DNA of 64,000 nt from an uncultured bacterium (GCA_964652195.1 CAZZBB010000060.1:39003-103002), one strand, 5' to 3'. Shown: positions 3,313-25,088, numbered from the stretch's first letter. Numbers and translations are program-made. Notes: generated by a model from the sequence alone, not told the origin.

Positions 3313-3459
3313 ATTTTCTGCATTTTTTAGGATAATAGATAAGGTTTCTACCATCAAAGAGGTTTCTGCCTTAAAGTTTTTTAATCAGTTTAATATCTGC
3401 TCCTTGTTAAAGAGGTATTGAAAGTATCACAAATTGAATTTTATTTAGGATACCTTATA

Positions 3460-3571
3460 ATACCATTTCTATTAATTTCTGTCCAATTAGCAATTGCTAT
3501 AAATGAAGTGTTGTGTGGCACAAACTAAAAGTTTATGCTACAAAAGAGATACTATATATCAGAAATGGTAT
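3460..3571. mobile_element. MITE-like element (~112 bp) with terminal inverted repeats ataccatttct / agaaatggtat, copy a
   Basis: The terminal inverted repeats and the core gtagcataaacttttagtttgtgc are shared with the elements at 14716-14829 and 24974-25088. Confidence 0.5.
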
Positions 3572-3661
3572 AAAACAGGTGTTTTTCAACTTTAAATTAA
3601 TGGCCATTTAGTGGTATTAGGTTTTGCTGAAGAAACATAACTATCGGAAACCGAATGTTCA

Positions 3662-4909
3662 TTATGGAATAGGCCACCCCGGTGTCGGTTCAGTGCGGAG
3701 CGCTTCTATTTCGTATAACTCTTCAACTTTTATCTCACGACCAAGCTTCGCTGAAAGGAGTGCACCACTCATAATCTCAGTCACTTTCAGACCTACATCC
3801 CCATTGCTGATAGGTTGTTCGTCGTTACTGCAGGAATTAATGAAATCTCGGAACTTATCTGGGAAGTGTTTATCTGGAAGTTCTAAGGGTGTTTCAACGA
3901 GATTCCCTTGATAACGTCTACGGTTGCCTTTGTCATCGGTTTCCCACTCACCTTTTTCAAGGAAGAGTTTATCGTTGCTGAAAGATCCTTTAGACCCGAA
4001 GATAAATATGCCTTGCGGTTGTCCTGCCATATTGCATGACCATCCGTGTTCGTAGGTAAATGACATGCCATTTGTAAATCGGACAAACACGGAAACGAAT
4101 TCCTCAACGTCGTTGATCTCTTCTCCAGTGTATTCAGGAGGCATACCCCGATATGCAATGCCGCTGATAGTTTCGGGTTGTGGTGAACCGAGTAAGTAGA
4201 TAGACCGATTGATGTCATATACACCTGTGTCGTATATTGTACCTCCACCGCTGTAAGCTGAATTGAGAAACCATTTGCCGAATCCGAACATATCTACATT
4301 AGGTCTGCCTCGGAGCCGGTAACTGGTCAACCTACCATAGTGAACATCACCGATTTTCCCGGATGTAACGTGCTCTCGGATAGCATAACTTGTTGGATTA
4401 AGACATGTGCCGCCACTCTGATAAGCAATTTTTACCCCTGCTTTGTCACAGGCATCCCGCATGTTTCTCGCCTCTGTTGCAGTTCGCGCCATCGGTTTTT
4501 CACAAAAGACATGCTTTCCAGCATTTGCTGCTGCGACAGTTGGAGCTTCGTGTACAAAAGGTGGTGTAGCCAGACTTACAGCGTCTAAGTCGCATTCCTT
4601 CAACATTTCATTGAAATCACTATATATTTTGACCCCATCTTTTGCATATTGTTCCCAGCATGCAGCGTTTTCATTGAACTGTTCCCGTGCTTCAGCGGAA
4701 TCAGCTTTTTCTGCTTCCTCCTTAGCACTATTTGCGCGTCCTTCTGCTCCTGAAAGCGTTTCTGCTGCTCTTCTCTGTGCGTTTGCGTCAACTGTATCGC
4801 AAACTGCCACAATCTGTGCTTGTTGCGGATGTGCAAGATACCCGTTGACATGTGAACCGGCAATCATACCGCACCCGATTAGTCCTACTTTAATCCGTTT
4901 TGACATCAT
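3662..4909 (-). CDS. Gfo/Idh/MocA family NAD(P)-dependent oxidoreductase
   Basis: N-terminal Rossmann motif VGLIGCGMIAGSHV. 415 aa. Family-typical C-terminal domain. Confidence 0.85.
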   Translation of the reverse strand: MMSKRIKVGLIGCGMIAGSHVNGYLAHPQQAQIVAVCDTVDANAQRRAAETLSGAEGRANSAKEEAEKADSAEAREQFNENAACWEQYAKDGVKIYSDFNEMLKECDLDAVSLATPPFVHEAPTVAAANAGKHVFCEKPMARTATEARNMRDACDKAGVKIAYQSGGTCLNPTSYAIREHVTSGKIGDVHYGRLTSYRLRGRPNVDMFGFGKWFLNSAYSGGGTIYDTGVYDINRSIYLLGSPQPETISGIAYRGMPPEYTGEEINDVEEFVSVFVRFTNGMSFTYEHGWSCNMAGQPQGIFIFGSKGSFSNDKLFLEKGEWETDDKGNRRRYQGNLVETPLELPDKHFPDKFRDFINSCSNDEQPISNGDVGLKVTEIMSGALLSAKLGREIKVEELYEIEALRTEPTPGWPIP

Positions 4910-5292
4910 GCTGCTCCTAAGTTTTTAATATTTCACGATATATAGAATAATTAACGTTAACAAAGTATTAAGTGAATTATCACTGATTTCTCTTTCGTTG
5001 AGTTCACGTTATTATAGTAAACTTTTGCATTAATGAAGCATTTTACAACGGACGAGGTGACCTCGCCCTACGATGGACGTTTTTCGTAAACGTTGAAATG
5101 TCTCATTAATTATTCACTTTACTATAAATACATTCTTAATAGGAATCTCGTTGAGATTTGTCATTCCAACCATAGGATTTTTTGTTATTCATATTATAGA
5201 TGTTTTCTGATACATGTCAAGAACAGAAGCATTCACTTGATTCAAAACAAAATCTATAAACAAACTGATATTTCTGTCGGATAAAATGGTTT

Positions 5293-5822: not shown

Positions 5823-6151
5823 GTAATGTGTATAATTACGTCAATATTTCACCATAAGTAGAATTTCTTCTCATATCATCTAAATATTCTATATCAATTT
5901 ACTGGAAGTGTGTGCTAAAAAAGTAGCTCTTGGTAATGTTAGTGGTTAGATATAGATATTTTCTTCAATTAATTTTCTTTTTTTATAAAAAAATGTATGA
6001 AATCAGCATTTGGTTAGATATAAACAAAAACAAGTAGTTGACTTTCTTTACAACATGATACCATTTCTAAATATATTTGTGTAACTTCTTGATAATTCCA
6101 CACAGGTTTGATATTATAAAACTCCGAATATTTTGATATAGGTAATAGAGA

Positions 6152-6334
6152 GTGTTTACAATTCAGTCAACTTTGACGGAAGAAGAGAAATGGCAAAATG
6201 AACCTGGTAAGGGTGGATATCCGCTGGACGAACATCGTGATAAAATATCTAATGAACAGTATGAATTAGAATCATTATCAAAAGACATAAAAGCTGCAGT
6301 GCGGCATATTCTACCTAATGGAGGCGAAGCGTGA
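6152..6334 (+). CDS. small hypothetical protein, stop overlaps the SDR start (ATGA)
   Basis: 60 aa ORF. The 4-bp ATGA overlap with the downstream SDR gene suggests translational coupling. Confidence 0.3.
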   Translation: MFTIQSTLTEEEKWQNEPGKGGYPLDEHRDKISNEQYELESLSKDIKAAVRHILPNGGEA

Positions 6335-7080
6335 GTTTAAAAGGACAAGTATGTATTATAACAGGCGGCGGAAGCGGAATTGGACGGGATGCTGCCTTGA
6401 AGATGGCACATCAAGGAGCAACTGTTGTTATCGTCGGCAGAACTGAATCGAAGTTAGAAATAGTAAAATCTGAAGGTAGTAGTGCCAGTGGAACAATAGT
6501 CAGTTATATACTTGATGTAGCTGATTATGAAGCAGTCCAGAAAATGGTGACGGATGTGGTAGAAAAATATGGACGGATTGATGTGCTTGTTAACAACGCA
6601 GGACACAGTTCACACAATCGTCGCATTACCAATGCAACACCAGATGAGGTGCGATCGGTAGTCGATTCAAACCTTATAGGTACGTTTTTCTGTTCTCAAG
6701 CTGTTGTACCTACCATGTTGGAAGCAAAGTCGGGAACAATCATCAATATCTCATCACTGGCAGCGATAACGCCTGGACCACTTGCAGGTTATGCTTATGG
6801 GGCAGCGAAGGCAGGTATTATTAATTTTACAGAGTTTCTTAATAATGATTTAATGAATACAGGTATCAGAGCCAGTGTCATTATTCCGGGTGAAGTCGCA
6901 ACACCGATTTTGGATAATCGACCAAATCCACCGGATGCAGAAGCACGCACAAAAATGGTAGATGTCGCAGAAACAACAGCTGCTATTCTCCTAATTGCCA
7001 CCTTACCCCCCAGAACAAACATACCGAAGTTGACAATCCGTCCAACTGAACATCGTGATATGGTTGAATTGAAAGATTGA
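6331..7080 (+). CDS. SDR family oxidoreductase (short-chain dehydrogenase/reductase)
   Basis: TGGGSGIGRD cofactor motif, NNAG, YGAAKAG catalytic motif. 249 aa. Confidence 0.9.
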   Translation: MSLKGQVCIITGGGSGIGRDAALKMAHQGATVVIVGRTESKLEIVKSEGSSASGTIVSYILDVADYEAVQKMVTDVVEKYGRIDVLVNNAGHSSHNRRITNATPDEVRSVVDSNLIGTFFCSQAVVPTMLEAKSGTIINISSLAAITPGPLAGYAYGAAKAGIINFTEFLNNDLMNTGIRASVIIPGEVATPILDNRPNPPDAEARTKMVDVAETTAAILLIATLPPRTNIPKLTIRPTEHRDMVELKD

Positions 7081-7084
7081 GGAA

Positions 7085-8293
7085 TCACCGGGTATAAATT
7101 GTTGTCTCAGGGTAATAACGTGCCCAAGCGAACCAATAGATGTTCACAGCAGGTATACGTTCTAAATTTTTACCTTTATGTTTGCCTAATGTTGCTTTAC
7201 CTGTAATCAGATTCCATTTTGTATCGGTATTATCTTGAGCGAAATAACCATCCTGGGGTGTAAAAAGTATTACCTTTTTGTCTACGATACGTTTATAAAC
7301 AGCGGTTGCAAATGACTCTTTGTCGTGATAGATTAACAAAGGCACACCGTTAACTGTATCGTTGATGATAGCGGTTTTCGCAAATCGTGAAAGTGGATAG
7401 GCGCGATAGTCCGTGTTATCAGAATCTTTTGGCTGAGTTTGTGTCAGATTATTTTGTATATTGACCTGTCCTCCATCAGCACCGTCTTGTCCATCAGCCC
7501 CATCCTGTCCAGCTGCACCGTCATGTCCAGCTAAGCCATCTTCACCAGCTTGACGTTGCACTTGGACTCCAATAACAAGCTGCTTATTCGGTAGTCTTTT
7601 ATCTGTGTATTTTGTTCCACTTACACCTGTGTCTTGGCTCGTGTGATACCTTTCATACGAATCAAGTCCGATGTCTTCTCGCATCTCGCCTCTATAGAGA
7701 ACAGAAAGCACACTTGTATCGGGAAAATTATCTTGCCATGTTTTCCATGTGATTTGTGGCATTGAGGCGAGTGGTTTTAGTTTTTTGCCTTTCAGTGGAC
7801 CTTGAATAGCTTCGCCAGTAATGTGTGACCAGAGTGACCGTGTTTGATGGTCATACATTAACAGTGCATCTCGCCACAATTTTCCGCTTACGCCGAAAGT
7901 GTAGGTTTTCCCTTCCAGTTCCCGACTATACACGATAGCCGTTTTACAGAGTGGTCACCATGTGGTAGCAATCTTTTTTCCGCCGACAACATCGTTTACA
8001 ATCTCATGTCCATTAAGCAGGTAGAGTGAATATGCGTGACTTTCACCGTTGAAAGTTACACCTATGACCGGTGCATCTGGATCTAATTTTGCTTTGCCAG
8101 CAGGCACGAATTGCGGCTTTGTGATAGCAGGGATGGCATCAAACTTCAGTAAAGTAATGATTGGGTCTTTGTCGTTGTCTGCTGCGGTTACGCTGAGAAC
8201 AAAAGTGAGTAAAAGCGTAAATATAGTGATGTAGTTTTTTAGAGAGGAAAGAATGTCTTTTCGGGATTTGCATGTTGTATTTGTCATTGGCAT
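7085..8293 (-). CDS. DUF3179-like secreted protein with one in-frame TGA (7955-7957) at the first Cys of the conserved CPLC motif. Either a candidate selenoprotein or a nonsense pseudogene.
   Basis: Track ORFs 7955..8383 and 7085..7933 are in the same frame (...KKIATTW-TGA-PLCKTAIVYSRELEGKTYTFGVSG...). Signal/TM at the N-terminus. Collagen-like GxD repeat insert. Confidence 0.5.
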
Positions 8294-12842: not shown

Positions 12843-14474
12843 TTGCCAAAAAAGAACACTTCAACAGATCCCGTCCAAGCAACACTCCCTTTCCCAACTC
12901 AAGACGATGAACAATTAGATATATCCACATTGGAAACATGGTTATTAGATGCCGCAAACACAATCCGCGGTGCAAGTGATGCCCCAAAATTCAAAGATTT
13001 CATCCTACCGCTCATTTTCTACAAACGCCTCTCCGATGTATTCGATGATGAATTTTCTAAACAGATAGCAGAATTTGGCGATGAAGAATCAGCCAGAGAA
13101 ATCATTGCCGTAGACCACGAGGACGCACTAAAAGCAGGACGTAACCCAATCGTTCGGTTTTATATCCCGCAGCAGTATAGTTGGGAGAAACTCCGCAAAC
13201 AACCTGCTGATGGACATCTGGGGGAGTTTGTCACCGAGGCGATGCGTGAAGTTGCACGGCTAAATCCACGGTTGGAAGGTGTACTTAATGTGCAAGATTT
13301 TAACGAAACACAAAGCGGACAACGCACACTTGATGAAGATAGGTTAGAAGCACTCATTGAGGTGCTAAGTCGACATCGGCTTGGACTGCAGAACACGGAA
13401 CCGGACATCCTCGGTCGTGCTTATGAGTATCTGTTACGGAAATTCGCGGAAGGACAAGGACAAAGTGCTGGTGAGTTCTACACACCGAAAGAGGTCGGTT
13501 GGTTGATGGCGCGTCTCATCAACCCTGAACCTTACACAAAGATCTACGATCCAGCATGCGGGTCTGGTGGACTACTTATCAAAGGACGATTGCTATTTGA
13601 GCAGACACATCCTGATGAAAAGAGCCAAGCACCGAAAATCTACGGACAGGAACTAACACCGACAACCTACGCTATGGCAAAGATGAACGCCTTCCTACAC
13701 GATTTCATCGGTGCGGACATTCAGATAGGTGATACTTTCCGCAACCCCCGATTTCTTGCAAATAACGCTACGTTACAACGATTTGACTACGTGATGGCAA
13801 ATCCGATGTGGAATCAGAAGGAATATGATGACGACTTTTATGAAAACGATAGTTGGCAACGATTTACTTCTGGCAAGCCACCGAGTTCATCTGCGGATTG
13901 GGCATGGGTGCAGCATATGTACGCTTCTTTGAAAGATAACGGTCGTGCAGCAATTGTGCTGGATACAGGAGCAGTTTCGCGCGGTTCCGGGAGTAAAAAC
14001 ACAAATCGCGAAAGAGACATCCGCAAAAAATTCGTTGAAGAAGATCTAATTGAAGGTGTGATACTCCTACCCGAAAACCTGTTTTACAACACAACTGCCC
14101 CGGGAATTATCTTGCTGTTGAACCGCAGTAAACCCGAAGAACGTAAAGGTGAAATCTTACTCGTTAATCTCACGAACTATTTTGAGACTCAGAAACCGAA
14201 AAATGTCTTAACGGACGATGGGATTGATGCCGCAACTGAAGTTTATAACGCATGGGAATCGCGTAAGAAATTTAGCCGTGTGATCACACTGGAAGATGCA
14301 CAGAAAACAGATTACAACCTGAGTCCGTCGCAGTTTGTGGATGTGGGAGACACCATTGAACACCGACCTATGAACGACATTCTTGCAGACCTAACAGAAG
14401 CGCGCCTCACCCGAGAAAAAGCGGATAATGAATTGGAAGCGGTGTTGGCACAACTTGGATTGAATGGAACATAG
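12843..14474 (+). CDS. hsdM: type I restriction-modification system methyltransferase subunit HsdM
   Basis: N6-adenine MTase architecture. N-terminal HsdM-N region (LETWLLDAANTIRG). Catalytic NPMW motif (a variant of NPPF/Y). AdoMet-binding DPACGSGG. Confidence 0.9.
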   Translation: MPKKNTSTDPVQATLPFPTQDDEQLDISTLETWLLDAANTIRGASDAPKFKDFILPLIFYKRLSDVFDDEFSKQIAEFGDEESAREIIAVDHEDALKAGRNPIVRFYIPQQYSWEKLRKQPADGHLGEFVTEAMREVARLNPRLEGVLNVQDFNETQSGQRTLDEDRLEALIEVLSRHRLGLQNTEPDILGRAYEYLLRKFAEGQGQSAGEFYTPKEVGWLMARLINPEPYTKIYDPACGSGGLLIKGRLLFEQTHPDEKSQAPKIYGQELTPTTYAMAKMNAFLHDFIGADIQIGDTFRNPRFLANNATLQRFDYVMANPMWNQKEYDDDFYENDSWQRFTSGKPPSSSADWAWVQHMYASLKDNGRAAIVLDTGAVSRGSGSKNTNRERDIRKKFVEEDLIEGVILLPENLFYNTTAPGIILLLNRSKPEERKGEILLVNLTNYFETQKPKNVLTDDGIDAATEVYNAWESRKKFSRVITLEDAQKTDYNLSPSQFVDVGDTIEHRPMNDILADLTEARLTREKADNELEAVLAQLGLNGT

Positions 14475-14715
14475 ATAACCCAACCTATATGAGAGGCTCA
14501 GGGTTATTTATAGTAAAGTTAATAATTAATGAGGTATTTCGACGTTGACGAAGACCACCCAACGTAGTGGCGAGCCCCCCCGCCCGTTGTGGAGTGTTTT
14601 ATTAATTCCAAAGTTTACTATAGGTTGGACAGTTTTAAGAATTAAACAAAGACTTGAAAGTCTATTCTTTATGTTTAGACACATCCCTCACTGCTGGTGT
14701 TTGGGATTTAATGTT

Positions 14716-14829
14716 ATACCATTTCTGATATATCACAACTCTCTTTTGTAGCATAAACTTTTAGTTTGTGCTACACAACACTTCATCTATAGTAATTGCT
14801 AATGGAACAAAATTAATAGGAATGGTATT
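14716..14829. mobile_element. MITE-like element, copy b (inverted relative to copy a)
   Basis: Terminal inverted repeats ataccatttctgat ... aggaatggtat. The core matches the reverse complement of 3488-3548. Confidence 0.5.
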
Positions 14830-14932
14830 AGATAGCATTCACCAGACTGTTGTTTGATAAGAGCTTATTAATTGATGAGTTAAGCCACAACCTGAAACTT
14901 GCCGAAAAAGATTACTATTGACTAAATCGGCA

Positions 14933-15008
14933 GCACCAGCGGTGCGGAAGGTGTGTAGAAACGTAAATGCCATAAGTTTCCGAGCACCAGCGGTGCGAAA
15001 GGTGTATG
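14933..15008. promoter_or_regulatory. two tandem palindromic boxes gcaccagcggtgcgRaaggtgt upstream of hsdS
   Basis: Direct repeat at 14933-14956 and 14983-15008. Each contains the palindrome GCACC-AGC-GGTGC. Confidence 0.3.
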
Positions 15009-15222
15009 TATACAGTTGTTAAAGAAATTACGAAAATTGTCCAAACTATAGTATAGTTTTTCAGACGCAAAACATCAATGGGAGCGGTTCTTAAGGATCT
15101 TATTTTTATACACAAAGCATCGGATGAAAAGGAATTTCTTGACCAAATTGAATTTATTCCGCTATAATGATGGACGCAAATTATGAGTCCTAACATTTGC
15201 ATGGGAACAAAGAAAGGTTGTT

Positions 15223-16458
15223 ATGGATGATATGAATATGCCAGAACATTGGGAAGTGATACCTTTAGAAAACGCGGTCAATATCTTTGATAAAAAGAGA
15301 ATTCCACTCAATGAAAAACAAAGGCAAAAAAAGCAAGGAAATTACCCTTACTGTGGAGCAAATGCAATCGTAGATCATGTAAATGATTATTTATTTGATG
15401 GTGAATATATTTTGTTAGCGGAGGATGGAGGGTATTGGGGTTCTTTAGAAAATTCTGCTTATTTGATGAGAGGAAAATTTTGGGTTAATAATCATGCCCA
15501 TGTTTTACAAGCTAAACAAGGTCTATCAGATAATTACTTTTTGATGTGTCAACTAAATTATCTTGATATTACACCATTTATCAGCGGCACAACTCGCGGA
15601 AAGTTGAATCAGGGAATGATGAAGCGGGTCCCATTAGCGCTTCCACCACTCCCCGAACAACGCGCCATCGCCCACATCTTACATACAATCCAAGAAGCAA
15701 AATTCACCCGAAAACGCGAAATTGAATTAGAACGCGAACGAAAAGCAGCATTGATGGATTATCTCTTTACACACGGCACAAAGGGTGAACTCCGCAAGCA
15801 GACAGCAATCGGTGAGATTCCTGAGAGTTGGAAAATAGTGAAGTTGGGAGAAATTGCAGACATTGTTTATGGGGTTCAAGCAGCTGTAGCAAAACTTCTT
15901 GATGAATCAATAGGTCTTCCAATTTTGACAAACATAAACATTACATTAGAAGGAACTCTGGATTTAACAAAACTACGCTACTATGAATTACCGGAAAATA
16001 AAAGAGAAAAGTTGATCTTGCGAAAGGGTGACCTGCTGTTTAACTGGAGAAGTGGAAGTCAACATCATGTAGGAAAAACTGCTTTATTTGATAAAGATGA
16101 AGAATATACTTTCTCTTCGTTTATTCTGCGTTTTCGTCTTTCTGATCAAATAGACAATATCTTTGCTCTCAACTATTTTCATTATCTAAGAACAAAAAGG
16201 TTCTTTGAAAAGAAACGTTCTCAATCGTCAATCAATTCGGTCATGAATGCAAGTCGAAGTGCGGACATTCCTATGTTAGTTCCATCAATTAATGAACAAT
16301 TAAAAATTGGTGATACGCTGCAAAAATTAAATGTGAAAATAGCAGCTCTTGAACGAGAAGTTGAACTCATAGACGAACTCTTCCACGCCATGCTCGAAGA
16401 ACTCATGACAGGGCAGCGATCTGCTGTGCCACTGATTGATACCAAATTGCTGAACTAA
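15223..16458 (+). CDS. hsdS: type I restriction-modification system specificity subunit HsdS (two target-recognition domains)
   Basis: Conserved HsdS central and C-terminal conserved regions (LPPLPEQRAIAHIL... and ...EREVELIDELFHAMLEELMTGQ). 411 aa. Confidence 0.9.
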   Translation: MDDMNMPEHWEVIPLENAVNIFDKKRIPLNEKQRQKKQGNYPYCGANAIVDHVNDYLFDGEYILLAEDGGYWGSLENSAYLMRGKFWVNNHAHVLQAKQGLSDNYFLMCQLNYLDITPFISGTTRGKLNQGMMKRVPLALPPLPEQRAIAHILHTIQEAKFTRKREIELERERKAALMDYLFTHGTKGELRKQTAIGEIPESWKIVKLGEIADIVYGVQAAVAKLLDESIGLPILTNINITLEGTLDLTKLRYYELPENKREKLILRKGDLLFNWRSGSQHHVGKTALFDKDEEYTFSSFILRFRLSDQIDNIFALNYFHYLRTKRFFEKKRSQSSINSVMNASRSADIPMLVPSINEQLKIGDTLQKLNVKIAALEREVELIDELFHAMLEELMTGQRSAVPLIDTKLLN

Positions 16459-16751
16459 CAGATGTCATTGACAACAAACGCTATTTGCGTTAAAACAATT
16501 ATCACATAACAACTGGTTTTCTACTTCCACTTTCGCAAGTGAAGTGTCAGGCAAGGAGCATCTGGCATCCTGAAAATCCTAAAATCCCGCAAATTCTGAT
16601 TCTGAAAACTAAAACTGAAAGCCTCTGGTGGGATGTTGTAACCGGTTGCGATCTTGGTTGTGATATGCTAAAATTCCACACAGGATTTTAGTAGACGACT
16701 CAATTAACAGCGGAACGTTTGAAATTAATTGAGGATGGGACAGACAGAAAA

Positions 16752-17819
16752 ATGAGATGTTTTGAAACCCGCGGTCCTGTATATCCGGAGGACAACTACG
16801 TCGTTGCACGCACAGATGAACTTTCGGATTTTGTCAATCGGTTGGAAAAGGGTCGGTATATCGTCCTTTTCGCCCCACGGCAGACAGGAAAGACCACGTT
16901 CTTCCGCAGTGCGTTAGATAGGCTCACAGCCGAGGCGTATTTCCCAATTCAGATTGATTTTCAAGCGTCCAACAACCTTGAACCTTCCGAGTTTTATGAA
17001 GGCATTTACGACGATATTCGCGAGGAGATAGAAAATGTTTTTCAAAGACGCGGCAGCTTGCCTTCTGAGGCTTTAGAGCAACTTTTAGACAACACAAAAC
17101 TCACCAACTATCTTTCTTTGCGAAGGTTTTTTAGGCGACTTTCAGATGTGCTGGAAAATCAGAAGGTTGTCCTGATCATTGACGAATTTGACGGTATCCC
17201 CCGAACGGTTGTAAGTGATTTTCTATATACACTCCGCCACATCTACCTTTCCAGAAGACATCGATCCCCACATAGCGTCGGCATCGTCGGGGTCAAGAGT
17301 ATTTCCCAGCTAAACTACGATCGTTCTATTTCTCCCTTCAACATCCAGGATGAGTTCAAATTGCCCAATTTCACCCTTGATCAGGTGCACGAGCTGCTTT
17401 CGCAATACACAGAAGAAGTGGGGCAGCCCTTCGACCCCGCGGTTATTGAATCTATTCACAAACAGACAGCTGGACAACCCGTACTCGTCAATCGATTCGC
17501 GCAGATCCTTACAGAGGAATTGGACATTGCCAAAAGTGAACCAATCACACTGCAACACTTTTCAAAGGCACTTGTCCAACTTCTTCGCGAAGGACATACG
17601 AACATTGATCACCTGATAACCAATATCCGTAGGAATCGGCGGTTTGAGTCGCTCCTTATGAAAATCGCCTTTTATGATGAAGGCACAGAATTCAACCTTT
17701 ACAATGAACTCATCAATGAACTCGCCACTTATGGTGTCATCGCCGAAGGGGAGGACGGTATGTGTGAAATTGTCAATCCGATTTATCACTATGCATCATG
17801 CGGGAATTCAAACCAATAG
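16752..17819 (+). CDS. P-loop ATPase (archaeal-type AAA/Arch_ATPase-like)
   Basis: Walker A LFAPRQTGKTTF preceded by VARTDELSDFVNRL. Walker B LIIDEFD. Start taken at the internal ATG (MRCFETRG). Confidence 0.6.
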   Translation: MRCFETRGPVYPEDNYVVARTDELSDFVNRLEKGRYIVLFAPRQTGKTTFFRSALDRLTAEAYFPIQIDFQASNNLEPSEFYEGIYDDIREEIENVFQRRGSLPSEALEQLLDNTKLTNYLSLRRFFRRLSDVLENQKVVLIIDEFDGIPRTVVSDFLYTLRHIYLSRRHRSPHSVGIVGVKSISQLNYDRSISPFNIQDEFKLPNFTLDQVHELLSQYTEEVGQPFDPAVIESIHKQTAGQPVLVNRFAQILTEELDIAKSEPITLQHFSKALVQLLREGHTNIDHLITNIRRNRRFESLLMKIAFYDEGTEFNLYNELINELATYGVIAEGEDGMCEIVNPIYHYASCGNSNQ

Positions 17820-17940
17820 TGAATGGATTGGAGCAGGAATATTTACCAGAAGACAATGCAAGCTGGGAATAGATGTTCCAAAGGGCACACTCAAAAGTGT
17901 TCTGAAACAAGCGGGACTCAAGGTTGAAGTGATAAACTGA
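17731..17940 (+). CDS. hicA: HicA-like toxin ORF (degenerate; its 5' end overlaps the ATPase gene)
   Basis: C-terminal DVPKGTLKSVLKQAGL matches the HicA family C-terminus. Upstream residues MHHAG sit where GSHH normally is. The start is uncertain. Confidence 0.4.
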   Translation: MVSSPKGRTVCVKLSIRFITMHHAGIQTNSEWIGAGIFTRRQCKLGIDVPKGTLKSVLKQAGLKVEVIN

Positions 17941-17951
17941 TGTAATATGTT

Positions 17952-19319
17952 GTGATTTATGAAAAGGGGGACAGCAGTTATGGTGCTTATGTTCCCGATC
18001 TCCCAGGATGCATCGCTGTAGGTGATACACTGAAAGAAGTCGAAACATTAATTCAAGAAGCTATCGAATTTCATATTGAAGGATTACAAGAGGACGGTGA
18101 CGATGTTCCACAACCCTCTATAAACATCCCTGTTCAGTATGATATTCCATATCTTGGTAAACACAAAGTCATTGAAAACTATGTATATAACGATGATCCT
18201 GCTCTCTTTACTTGTAAGAACTCTGCGGGACAACTCCACCTTGTTGCTGTTGGTAAAAACGATATACAAAAAACCTGGCTCCGTGTTGGAATCTCTAATG
18301 AACGGTTTAATTATATCCGCACTGGTGGATTAGAACTTCGTAGTGCTTTCACCGATGCTGGGTATGGTTCTCTGCTACAGGTAAGAGTACCATACGACGA
18401 TTCTATAGAACCTTCACTGAAGGTCCTCCATCCCAATGAAATCCCTGAGGACCTGCTCCCGCTTCCAGGCGAACGACTCGGACTAAAAACCGAAACACTT
18501 CCTGCACTTAGCAATGCACAAGAAATAGCTTCATCCAGTGCTCGAGAACTTCTGAATTTTGCCTTCAATTTTGGTGGAATTTTCAGAACAGAAGCACCGA
18601 TCGACTCTTTAGGCAATATTCTAACCGGATTACAACAAGTAATTAACAGAATCGGTGCAAAATGTGTTAATTCAACATCTAAAAAGATACCTGAAGACAT
18701 CAAAAGCAGTATGGGGATCTCGCTATTAGAAGTTGGTGCAGGTTCATTTGAGATTCAACTTGCATCGACAGAGTATGTTGGTATATTGAAAGAGTCTGAT
18801 CTTGGAAATGCAATTAATGACTTTCTGAAAATTCTTAATTCTGGATGTAACCAAGACCAACTGAAACCACTCATGGAGCACTTCGGACCAAGAATAGCAA
18901 AGGAATACACTGAGTTTCTCAAACCACTCAGCGAATCCGCAATAGATACCAGATTCACGTGGACATCGCCACATCCTGACCGCGGTGGAACAGCCCAACT
19001 ATCTAAGTCTCAAATGGTAAAAACCATTGATATTCTTGAGAAGATTCAAGAAAAAACATTAAAAACAATAAGAATCCCCGGTACATTAGTTGGTATTTCT
19101 CTCAGATCCAAATCATTTGAGATAGAAACGTCTAATGATAACTATTATGAAAGAGATTTCTTTAAAGGAAAGATCACGGATGAAGTTTTAGAGACTGAAA
19201 TCGTAAAGAACGCTGCAGTAAACAAGCAATATACTGCAGAAATACAAGGTTTCGCTGAAATTGGTGAGACAAAAGATGAAACCAATATTAAGTTCCGACT
19301 ACTTAGTCTCAGTCAGTAA
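17952..19319 (+). CDS. HicB-like antitoxin N-domain fused to a ~400 aa uncharacterised C-terminal domain
   Basis: N-terminus YGAYVPDLPGCIAVGDTLKEVETLIQEAIEFHIEGLQEDGDDVPQP is the HicB/UPF0150 fold. The remaining ~400 aa have no recognised domain. Confidence 0.6.
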   Translation: MIYEKGDSSYGAYVPDLPGCIAVGDTLKEVETLIQEAIEFHIEGLQEDGDDVPQPSINIPVQYDIPYLGKHKVIENYVYNDDPALFTCKNSAGQLHLVAVGKNDIQKTWLRVGISNERFNYIRTGGLELRSAFTDAGYGSLLQVRVPYDDSIEPSLKVLHPNEIPEDLLPLPGERLGLKTETLPALSNAQEIASSSARELLNFAFNFGGIFRTEAPIDSLGNILTGLQQVINRIGAKCVNSTSKKIPEDIKSSMGISLLEVGAGSFEIQLASTEYVGILKESDLGNAINDFLKILNSGCNQDQLKPLMEHFGPRIAKEYTEFLKPLSESAIDTRFTWTSPHPDRGGTAQLSKSQMVKTIDILEKIQEKTLKTIRIPGTLVGISLRSKSFEIETSNDNYYERDFFKGKITDEVLETEIVKNAAVNKQYTAEIQGFAEIGETKDETNIKFRLLSLSQ

Positions 19320-19343
19320 TCTTACTGCAACTTAGATACAGAT

Positions 19344-19826
19344 ATGTCTGAACGTTCCGTAGTCCAAGACCCACTCCTCAAATACACCAACGAAATCGGC
19401 AGGACACAGGTCACCCGATCAGAAGCCATGCAGATGCGTGGAGGAAATACTTCCGCACTTTATTTTCAAGACACATTAAAATCACAACTCCTAAAACTCA
19501 ACAATGGAATCATAGACGACGCCAATTGTGCCGACGTGATACGCATACTCAACTTGCTGAAACCCACACTTGAAGGCAATCAAGAAGCACTCAACTACAT
19601 TCGACAGAACGCCAACACACAATTCGGAAAAGGCAGACTATTCGAACGACTGATAAGAGCATATCTGCTTGAAGACCCATCTACAACAAACGATTTTCAG
19701 AGGTATATCTATAGGGAGAAGAGGAATAAAGAATGGGAAGTCTTACAACATCCTTTGAAAAGTGTTAGCAACGATTACAAGAACCTTGACAAACCCAGGT
19801 CAACTATAGTAGAAGAGACAGTGTAG
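19344..19826 (+). CDS. hypothetical protein (160 aa), last gene of the island
   Basis: ORF only. Followed by ~1 kb of AT-rich non-coding DNA. Confidence 0.4.
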   Translation: MSERSVVQDPLLKYTNEIGRTQVTRSEAMQMRGGNTSALYFQDTLKSQLLKLNNGIIDDANCADVIRILNLLKPTLEGNQEALNYIRQNANTQFGKGRLFERLIRAYLLEDPSTTNDFQRYIYREKRNKEWEVLQHPLKSVSNDYKNLDKPRSTIVEETV

Positions 19827-20043
19827 AATACAGTTTATAGGTATATAAAATTTCAATCGTTTTCATCTTCTCGATGGTCAGGATTTTGTTCCTTTTTGCT
19901 ATTGAGCCGTAAGAATTTACACCTTGCTTCTTTAATTCTTCCTGCCTCCGTCTCACATCAATACAATATTTGTGAATATCGTTATCAAAACGGGCGTTAA
20001 CTAATCGCTTTGCTTCTCTGACTTCTTCAATAATATCGTTCAT
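19804..20043 (-). CDS. small hypothetical ORF
   Basis: 79 aa ORF (MNDIIEEVREAKRLVNARFDNDIHKYCIDVRRRQEE...). Weak support. Confidence 0.2.
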   Translation of the reverse strand: MNDIIEEVREAKRLVNARFDNDIHKYCIDVRRRQEELKKQGVNSYGSIAKRNKILTIEKMKTIEILYTYKLYSTLSLLL

Positions 20044-24952: not shown

Positions 24953-24973
24953 TAGATACGATAGTTTGAAGTA

Positions 24974-25088
24974 ATACCATTTCTGATTATTAAAGTCTCT
25001 TAACTGGTAGCATAAACTTCCAGTTTGTGCAGTATTTCAAGACATGCTTAACAACTGTTCACGGGATAAACATTTTTAGAAATGGTAT
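24974..25088. mobile_element. MITE-like element, copy c
   Basis: Terminal inverted repeats ataccatttctgat ... agaaatggtat. Core ggtagcataaacttccagtttgtgc. Confidence 0.45.

Follow-up and report, generated by a model that had tools for sequence, protein, structure and literature searches.

The 64,000-nt stretch of DNA analyzed here (hereafter the window, from an uncultured bacterium, GCA_964652195.1, CAZZBB010000060.1:39003-103002; coordinates are counted from its first letter) carries a 455-aa gene that, judged by its sequence, is a real fusion of a HicB antitoxin domain to a phage-defense-type protein. The gene belongs to a same-strand run that comprises, in the list of open reading frames (ORFs), hsdM, hsdS, a P-loop ATPase ORF, an 88-aa ORF, the 455-aa ORF and a 160-aa ORF (Table 1). 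We consider it probable that the region is a degraded copy of a hybrid toxin-antitoxin (TA)/abortive-infection cassette that we found only in Candidatus Poribacteria and that works by the mechanism proposed below. In its complete form, the cassette consists of hicA followed by the fusion gene, between hsdS and hsdR of a type I restriction-modification (R-M) operon. Together, hicA and the HicB domain replace the small A gene that accompanies stand-alone relatives of the fusion; hicA has been lost recurrently, and the fusion is under constraint.

Several genes of the window copy carry lesions. The same sequence is present in two independent Logan assemblies (L001 and L002) and in an NCBI contig, down to an identical fusion protein, and the lesions are therefore real rather than assembly artifacts.

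HicB antitoxin domain fused to a DUF6575/PDC-M63B-like protein

A HicB fold at the N-terminus of the 455-aa protein had been recognized in a sequence-only reading of the window, and database comparison supports it at the level of both sequence and structure. Residues 4-56 match Pfam HicB_lk_antitox (PF15919; E 3.6e-13, 50.2 bits against a cut-off of 27), phmmer relates the domain to the solved HicB proteins HicB3 (4p78; E 1.3e-5) and B. pseudomallei HicB (6g1c; E 1.8e-5), and Foldseek aligns it with 6g1c at 41% identity over 54 columns and also with 4p7d. The N-terminal HicA-binding domain of HicB, a partial RNase H-like fold, is present in the window protein. No match was found there to the C-terminal DNA-binding domain of HicB (ribbon-helix-helix, RHH, or helix-turn-helix, HTH), residues 66-445 being DUF6575/PDC-M63B-like instead (Pfam, PADLOC); because this domain is absent, the protein is not a canonical HicB.

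The remaining ~400 aa, previously described as having no recognizable domain, do match known families. Pfam DUF6575 (PF20215) covers residues 66-235 with a score of 75.9 bits (cut-off 26.6; E 3.9e-21; profile positions 8-176 of 218), and four PADLOC models of PDC-M63B cover residues 214-445 (best E 4.2e-13; profile positions 74-262 or 79-300 of 309). NCBIfam has no model for the fusion. Of 44 columns with a conservation of 80% or more in the family at large, the body of the protein keeps 42, and the two deviating columns are common to the nearest locus, L003, or to other fused proteins.

Truncation of hicA and of the upstream ATPase gene

The nearest locus (L003; GCA_003635315.1, contig PYJD01000007), whose fusion is 86% identical, shows the gene order hsdS, AAA_35 ATPase (538 aa), HicA (61 aa), HicB::DUF6575 (460 aa), HsdR (957 aa) and a YgjP-like gene. 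By blastn, window 16613-17857 aligns with L003 5851-7096 at 95.5% identity and window 17864-19591 with L003 7925-9655 at 89.5% identity; the intervening 828 bp of L003 (7097-7924) are absent from the window. The missing segment comprises the last third of the ATPase gene, a 227-bp intergenic region with a promoter-like TTGACA-17-TAATAT (L003 7676-7704), and hicA codons 1-40 including the GSH motif.

What is left of hicA is its 3' end. Window 17860-17922 corresponds to residues 41-61 of the intact HicA of L003 and L006 (71% identity by tblastn, at the syntenic position by blastn), and Pfam HicA_toxin covers only profile positions 43-58 of 58 (E 0.0017; 18.9 bits against a cut-off of 27). The earlier observation that the upstream frame ends in a HicA C-terminus is thereby confirmed. 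The remnant has no GSH motif, start codon or ribosome-binding site, and a ~60-aa HicA toxin, with its dsRBD-like fold and catalytic GSH histidine, is therefore absent here; intact HicA proteins bearing GSHR are present in five relatives (L003, L006, L007, L009 and L039). The hicA stop codon is mutated as well, so that the frame continues for five codons to 17940.

These changes account for the 88-aa ORF, which had been read as a degenerate HicA-like gene overlapping the ATPase gene. The overlap and the HicA-derived end stand, and the degenerate gene does not: the first ~62 codons are ATPase gene DNA in another frame, and the last ~21 codons plus the five-codon read-through come from hicA. As a called protein it is absent from the protein collections searched. 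From this composition, the ORF is a chimeric scar and no gene, and, as far as the nucleotide record tells, hicA cannot be made in this genome; with no HicA, there is no HicAB system in the window. A decaying HicAB pair, one of the possibilities first raised, is thus an apt description of the window hicA, given the 828-bp deletion relative to the intact 61-aa hicA of L003.

The ATPase gene was damaged in two ways. A 1-nt deletion at 17792/17793 (L003 CACTATTGC; window CACTATGC), seen in tblastn as a frame switch at residue 359, causes a premature stop at 17817-17819 and leaves 366 aa in the window versus 538 aa in L003. The full-length L003 ATPase matches NERD and PDDEXK_9, and it is this NERD/PD-(D/E)XK-like C-terminal third that is deleted in the window.

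Stand-alone relatives and their partner gene

The C-terminal 400 aa belong to a large family. An exhaustive profile search returned 2,729 clusters (50% identity) at E<=1e-3 and 453 at E<=1e-30. Nearly all of the top 150 clusters are ~390-410 aa long and align from their first residues with no N-terminal extension, so the stand-alone two-part protein (hereafter B) is the norm and the HicB fusion is rare, with roughly 70 fused clusters. Among 62 diverse representatives, PDC-M63B was matched in 52 and PD-T4-10_B in 43 (best E 1.3e-14); similarity to PD-T4-10_B is confined to the N-terminal ~115 aa of the relatives and similarity to PDC-M63B to the C-terminal ~250 aa.

Stand-alone B genes are preceded by a small abutting or overlapping gene (hereafter A) whose product matches PD-T4-10_A. 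PADLOC matches were obtained for an uncalled 146-aa ORF in L004 (E 2.6e-4), for L016 (E 7e-6) and for a frameshifted copy in L014 (E 4e-6), and tblastn located the A gene in 14 of 16 stand-alone loci (L017, L018, L022-L028, L031-L034), with no match in L029 and L030. An Oscillatoria plasmid shows the same arrangement, a 137-aa "hypothetical protein" followed by a "DUF6575 domain-containing protein", the former matching the Poribacteria A proteins at E 1e-24 (blastp). The sequence-only reading had raised the question of whether homologues of the C-terminal region occur in other defense contexts; they do, as stand-alone relatives paired with a PD-T4-10A-like gene. A tblastn search with two A proteins found no PD-T4-10A homologue in the window or in any fused locus, and PDC-M63A was matched by none of the neighbors scanned in the window, L003, L004 and L006.

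The PD-T4-10 system was recovered from E. coli ECOR65 by functional selection; its B protein is toxic and neutralized by A, A could not be deleted, and the pair provides abortive-infection defense against T-even phages (Vassallo et al. 2022, PMC9519451). The same study lists DUF6575 among domains new to defense without naming its system, so the link between DUF6575 and PD-T4-10B comes only from the overlap of PADLOC models. Our literature search found no published description of a HicB::DUF6575 fusion.

A metagenome profile scan yielded 19 loci, mostly stand-alone A-B pairs, and a metagenome scan with the single fusion protein found nothing. Among the predicted structures in BFVD are DUF6575 proteins of viral contigs (E 1.8e-19) and of Leptospira phage LE1 (E 1e-7); tblastn against GenBank phage records gave no match.

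The A gene is left uncalled by the source annotation in L004 (5626-6066, ahead of the stand-alone B gene at 6086-7252) and is split by frameshifts in L014 (4605-5001) and L015, both on low-coverage contigs. The motifs CPP...G.VYR, C..CG[LV]SV and HHTWW.P are common to A proteins. We considered the "SHHTWW" of A proteins as a HicA-like GSH motif and dropped the idea for want of Pfam support; likewise, P0195 (529 aa), a candidate A-B fusion, was rejected and has a duplicated DUF6575 N-part instead.

Fusions with and without hicA in Candidatus Poribacteria

All full-length homologues of the fusion, the 86%-identical one as well as the more distant ones, come from Candidatus Poribacteria, which are sponge symbionts. 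A full-length fusion stands next to an intact hicA in L003 (same contig as L008), L006, L007, L009 and L039. In the other four of the nine full-length loci (the window, L036, L037 and L038), hicA is dead; in L037, hsdS runs directly into the last ~6 codons of hicA as the result of a deletion.

Shortened and rearranged fusions also occur, none with a working hicA. In L005, L013 and L019-L021, the HicB domain and the first part of DUF6575 (residues 1-186 or 1-195) are joined in frame to a Uma2 nuclease; in L006 and L036, Uma2 is encoded downstream by a gene of its own, and it matches PADLOC PDC-S03. The fusion of L012 (6989-7843) is a 284-aa short form in which residues 1-199 are joined to 370-459, retaining the C-terminal part that is predicted to resemble an oligonucleotide/oligosaccharide-binding (OB) fold. 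L010 and L011 carry fusions truncated to 196 and 198 aa.

Among the first seven loci, intact hicA coincided with a full-length fusion and absence of hicA with a C-terminally deleted one, the pattern to be expected if HicA and the B moiety neutralized each other through the HicB tether and B were kept only while hicA is intact. Full-length fusions nonetheless accompany a deleted hicA in L037, a TAG at codon 15 in L036 and L038, and a truncated hicA in the window. Once L036, L037 and L038 were found, we rejected the notion that hicA is needed to keep B harmless, and mutual neutralization now appears very improbable.

Selection was gauged by the ratio of nonsynonymous to synonymous substitution rates (dN/dS), which is 0.19-0.28 for the whole fusion and 0.12-0.37 for hicA. 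The HicB N-domain has a median dN/dS of 0.09 among loci with hicA and 0.10 among loci without it, and the Uma2 chimeras of L005 and L013 differ with a dN/dS of 0.16. Since three further loci combine a full-length fusion with a dead hicA, and since purifying selection acts on the fusion, the fusion does not depend on HicA.

The fusion could instead be an oversized HicB antitoxin, with the 400 aa serving as an oligomerization or sensor module, HicA as the sole effector, and the gene drifting wherever hicA is lost. Its HicB N-domain is indeed canonical, five loci keep an intact hicA that is under purifying selection, and stop and start codons overlap as in ordinary hicAB. We nevertheless regard this explanation as unlikely: the fusion and its HicB domain are constrained in loci without hicA (the two HicB medians weaken the explanation only in part, as the hicA losses are undated), the Uma2 chimeras are constrained too, and the 400 aa form an independent, widespread family with a partner gene of its own and a defense association.

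The hicA genes of L036 and L038 (both at 4816-4998) carry the same in-frame TAG in place of Trp15. The two loci are divergent, and their hicA copies differ by 7 nonsynonymous and 11 synonymous changes (dN/dS 0.14). The shared TAG could mean that the stop codon is read through, that expression of the toxin is attenuated, or that hicA was inactivated recently, in parallel or by recombination. The two halves of the Uma2 chimeras differ sharply in synonymous divergence (dS 0.27 versus 1.47), which suggests recombination, and the chimeric architecture is seen in ~17 protein clusters. P0050-P0054 look like members of the short-form class of L012.

Start region and expression of the window fusion

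In the five loci with intact hicA, an in-frame ATG of the fusion gene overlaps the hicA stop (TAATG or ATGA), and 15 nt further downstream, preceded by a Shine-Dalgarno (SD) sequence of the form GAGGGA or GAAGGA, there is a second ATG (ATG GAA TAT...). A DNA alignment of nine loci reveals that, in the window, the first ATG is lost, the SD sequence reads GAAGTGA, and the second ATG is followed by TAA (codon 2 GAA to TAA). Both ancestral starts are destroyed, and only a GTG at codon 5 is left. This GTG is found only in the window; the other loci of the alignment have GTA, ATT or GTT at that codon. No SD sequence precedes it, compared with SD sequences at 27 of the 43 larger ORFs of the window, and upstream of the window fusion we found no good promoter-like site in place of the deleted one. 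The window branch has accumulated 19 nonsynonymous and 17 synonymous substitutions versus 22 and 23 on the L003 branch; there is no nonsynonymous excess, and the relative-rate test for relaxed selection is uninformative.

One plausible explanation, to which we give somewhat less than an even chance, is that the fusion is a working orphan, translated from the GTG at 17952 on read-through from the hsd/ATPase transcript, and acting as a self-contained TA-like defense protein that never needed HicA. The ORF body is intact, its conserved columns are kept, nonsynonymous changes are not in excess, the derived GTG could be a compensatory start, and L036, L037 and L038 likewise keep full-length fusions beside a dead hicA. 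The case is weakened by a GTG that lacks an SD sequence, by the deletion of the promoter-like site with no good replacement, by the destruction of both ancestral starts, and by neighbors (the ATPase gene, hicA and hsdR) that are already pseudogenes. We regard the window fusion either as a pseudogene of very recent origin or as an orphan with weak expression, the chance that it still functions being about even.

Promoter-like TTGACA...TATACT/TAATAT sites lie upstream of hicA in L036 (4590-4640), L038 (4600-4650) and L003 (7676-7704). A palindrome between the hexamers of L036 (TGATAA-N5-TTATCA) could be an operator, although the fusion has no recognizable DNA-binding domain.

Predicted structure and conserved residues

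The AlphaFold2 model of the full-length window protein has a predicted local distance difference test (pLDDT) score of 77.8 and a predicted template-modelling (pTM) score of 0.54; a model of residues 190-455 reaches 84.6 and 0.71, respectively. In the N-terminal half, the HicB domain (1-46) and a disordered linker (43-60) are followed by the beta-rich N-part of DUF6575 (62-160). The C-terminal half consists of a helical or mixed middle region (195-366) and a five-stranded barrel (367-455) with a helix between strands 3 and 4 (topology b1-b2-b3-helix-b4-b5). Foldseek searches of the PDB with the full-length and the C-terminal-only models gave matches at the same C-terminus, all of them to OB folds, and the OB-like barrel is therefore the C-terminal element. 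The matches include CusF/SilF (template-modelling, TM, score to target 0.59-0.72), Teb1 OB-B, Rim1/SSB, RPA and Stn1, with E values of 0.013-0.3, and the best is CusF 2vb2 (E 0.013, TM 0.64). Residues 60-366 have no PDB match by fold (Foldseek, both models) or by sequence profile. Structure prediction of the C-terminal part, which had been suggested as a check on its identity, thus pointed to a barrel at the end, through weak Foldseek matches, and left the stretch before it unmatched. Against PDB sequences, the family profile retrieved nothing but de novo designed helical proteins, and these we treated as noise.

Across the family, Q228, S265 (in GAGSF) and G406 are invariant, and near-invariant positions include E75, W109, S115, R118, R198, Y319, W337-x-S-P and Y427. 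These residues suggest no known catalytic motif.

Proposed origin and mechanism

We propose that the cassette descends from a widespread A-B pair, in which a ~140-aa PD-T4-10A-like A protein would have been encoded with a ~390-410-aa B protein in which DUF6575 forms the N-domain, a PDC-M63B-like region the middle and an OB-like barrel the C-terminus. In Poribacteria, hicA would have taken the place of the A gene, and B would have gained the HicA-binding N-domain of HicB, with B standing where HicB usually has its DNA-binding tail. The resulting hicA and hicB::B pair, with start overlapping stop, would then have been inserted between hsdS and hsdR. HicA, an RNase toxin as known for its family, would be held by the HicB domain; the HicB and DUF6575 head may serve as a conserved regulatory or sensing module, and the C-terminal region may be an exchangeable effector, probably binding nucleic acid through its modelled OB barrel. 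The whole protein would act as a single-chain, TA-like abortive-infection protein, with HicB working in cis and HicA as a second toxin that is optional. We favor this single-chain reading because the fusion is retained without hicA and without A, and because the HicB N-domain is its most constrained part. In the genome of the window, the orphan fusion would be at best weakly expressed.

Several observations weigh against this interpretation. The window protein does not match the PD-T4-10_B model at E<=0.1, its N-domain being shared by way of Pfam DUF6575, and the toxicity of the B moiety would be an extrapolation from this partial link to PD-T4-10. Deletion of PDC-M63AB in E. coli NILS69, the sole experiment on that pair, gave no defense phenotype (PMC12409345). 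The OB resemblance, weak at E 0.013-0.3, is one of predicted fold and is not evidence of homology, and for residues 190-366 neither a catalytic motif nor a relative of solved structure was found. Finally, the window fusion may still be expressed, given the absence of a nonsynonymous excess and the GTG particular to the window.

A more specific form of the proposal, which we put forward as a doubtful one, is that the HicB N-domain was co-opted independently of HicA as a cis-acting autoinhibitory or sensing head of a modular abortive-infection protein. Its effector would be exchangeable (PDC-M63B-like plus OB, Uma2, or OB alone), HicA would be optional and repeatedly discarded, and the fixed slot between hsdS and hsdR could mean that the protein monitors the R-M system as PrrC does.

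On the proposed origin, the family represents two TA lineages recombining, with HicA/HicB displacing the PD-T4-10-like antitoxin and becoming covalently attached to its toxin-type protein. Should an intact cassette such as that of L003 (7574-9383) prove active, it would provide a natural case of an antitoxin domain regulating an unrelated effector and a first handle on the mechanism of DUF6575/PD-T4-10B, a family of at least 2,729 clusters. The interest lies in these intact relatives, the window copy being degraded. For the window itself, the outcome is a corrected annotation, with three pseudogenes (hicA, hsdR and the gene of the ATPase), an 88-aa ORF that is no gene, and a 455-aa ORF that is a DUF6575-family fusion instead of a HicB carrying an unassigned tail.

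Relationship to known systems

In common with the HicAB type II TA systems (Y. pestis HicA3/HicB3, 4p78; B. pseudomallei, 6g26), the window protein has the HicA-binding domain of HicB in its N-terminal 56 residues, and related loci encode a 61-62-aa HicA with a GSH motif immediately upstream, stop and start overlapping. The cassette differs in that ~400 aa of DUF6575/PDC-M63B-like sequence replace the RHH/HTH domain of HicB, in that only the final 21 codons of hicA survive in the window, and in that the fusion persists without hicA in several lineages.

Resemblance to PD-T4-10 lies in the stand-alone relatives, where a small A gene overlaps or abuts B and both PD-T4-10_A and PD-T4-10_B models are matched. 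However, only the N-terminal ~115 aa are similar, the window protein falls below detection by PD-T4-10_B, and fused loci have no A. The likeness to PDC-M63, a candidate two-gene system of PADLOC-DB v2, is the match of residues 214-445 to four PDC-M63B models; the N-terminal ~55-75 profile positions of PDC-M63B remain unmatched, and there is no PDC-M63A neighbor. By these profile matches, the window protein is a member of Pfam DUF6575 and is related to PD-T4-10 and PDC-M63 while belonging to neither.

PrrC, of EcoprrI, is an abortive-infection effector encoded within a type I R-M operon, and the fused cassette likewise occupies the hsdS-hsdR slot of such an operon in every fused locus. It has no sequence relationship to PrrC, however, and control of the cassette by the R-M system would be hypothetical; the same operon bears unrelated cargo (Avs2, PIN-TPR, Uma2), and the position may be merely a permissive slot. 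CapRel SJ46 is a fused single-chain toxin-antitoxin defense protein. Here, too, an antitoxin-type domain is covalently joined to a TA-toxin-related region and kept without a separate partner, but the domains are unrelated, and autoinhibition and a phage trigger are, for the present family, hypotheses by analogy.

The type I restriction-modification operon and its cargo

We examined 15 distinct fused loci, all from Poribacteria; contig-end cases aside, each has the fused cassette between hsdS and hsdR, and the HsdR proteins of this conserved type I R-M operon are 70-86% identical across fused loci. In the window, hsdM and hsdS appear intact and hsdR is not. At most 92 of the 957 hsdR codons (about 83-92) are homologous, at 81.5% identity (tblastn, residues 1-92), before an unrelated tail begins. 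Synteny in blastn halts at window 19591 and resumes at 20001 (L003 13723), such that ~4.07 kb of L003, comprising the rest of hsdR, the YgjP-like gene and a DUF932 gene, are replaced by 409 bp. The span originally assigned to the HicB fusion, 17731-19826, also takes in this hsdR stump and its tail (19344-19826). The proposal of a TA-derived fusion inside a defense island holds for the 455-aa gene, which belongs to a conserved HicB::DUF6575 family (dN/dS ~0.2) in an R-M operon with defense cargo.

Table 1. Coordinates and state of the features discussed, in the window unless a locus is named
Feature	Position	Strand	Evidence and state
hsdM, type I R-M methyltransferase	12843..14474	+	Appears intact; Pfam N6_Mtase E 1.5e-94, HsdM_N E 2e-23
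hsdS, specificity subunit	15223..16458	+	Appears intact; Pfam Methylase_S E 3.6e-40; tblastn to L003 HsdS residues 1-411
AAA_35/STAND-like ATPase pseudogene	16719..17819	+	Pfam AAA_35 E 2.2e-14; frameshifted, 3' third deleted
88-aa "HicA-like ORF"	17674-17940	+	Chimeric scar: out-of-frame ATPase plus hicA 3' end
Deletion junction (828 bp, L003 7097-7924 missing)	17858..17863	.	blastn against L003
hicA 3' remnant, codons 41-61 plus five-codon read-through to TGA	17860..17940	+	tblastn; Pfam HicA_toxin sub-threshold
Ancestral fusion-gene ATG, then TAA	17940..17945	+	DNA alignment of nine loci; translation M*YVVIYE
455-aa HicB::DUF6575/PDC-M63B-like fusion ORF	17952..19319	+	GTG start, no SD; body intact
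HicB N-terminal (HicA-binding) domain, residues 1-56	17952..18119	+	Pfam, phmmer, Foldseek; dN/dS ~0.1 across loci
DUF6575 region, residues 66-235	18147..18656	+	Pfam PF20215 E 3.9e-21; beta-rich N-part is the portion common to PD-T4-10_B
PDC-M63B-like region, residues 214-445	18591..19286	+	PADLOC PDC-M63B E 4.2e-13; helical/mixed; invariant Q228, S265 (GAGSF), G406
Predicted C-terminal OB-fold-like beta-barrel, residues ~367-455	19050..19316	+	AlphaFold2 topology and Foldseek
hsdR 5' stump plus unrelated tail (160-aa ORF)	19344..19826	+	tblastn to HsdR residues 1-92
Uma2 chimeras	L005 8001-9146; L013 6989-8134; L019-L021 3989-5107

The Poribacteria type I R-M operon appears to be a carrier of variable defense cargo. 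L003 (2348-7573) carries CoiA_N with DUF2806 and the AAA_35 ATPase with its NERD/PD-(D/E)XK tail; PIN-TPR with DUF5615 is found in L005 (1706-6486) and L036 (1-3185), Avs2 in L006 (1982-6316; PADLOC E 1e-169), and a C5 methyltransferase with HATPase_c_3 in L037 (552-3696) and L038. Uma2 is also among the cargo of this operon.

A 79-aa ORF on the minus strand (19804-20043), with no Pfam family, spans the hsdR deletion boundary of the window. The gap between hsdM and hsdS (14475-15222) contains no sizeable ORF but has short dispersed repeats with counterparts elsewhere in the window: 14714-14830 pairs with 3458-3573 on the opposite strand (~90% identity), 14505-14622 with 5013-5130 (~81%) and 14707-14771 with 24965-25030 (~81%). 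These repeats resemble miniature inverted-repeat transposable elements (MITE) or repetitive extragenic palindromic (REP) sequences, and relatives carry defense cargo in the same slot.

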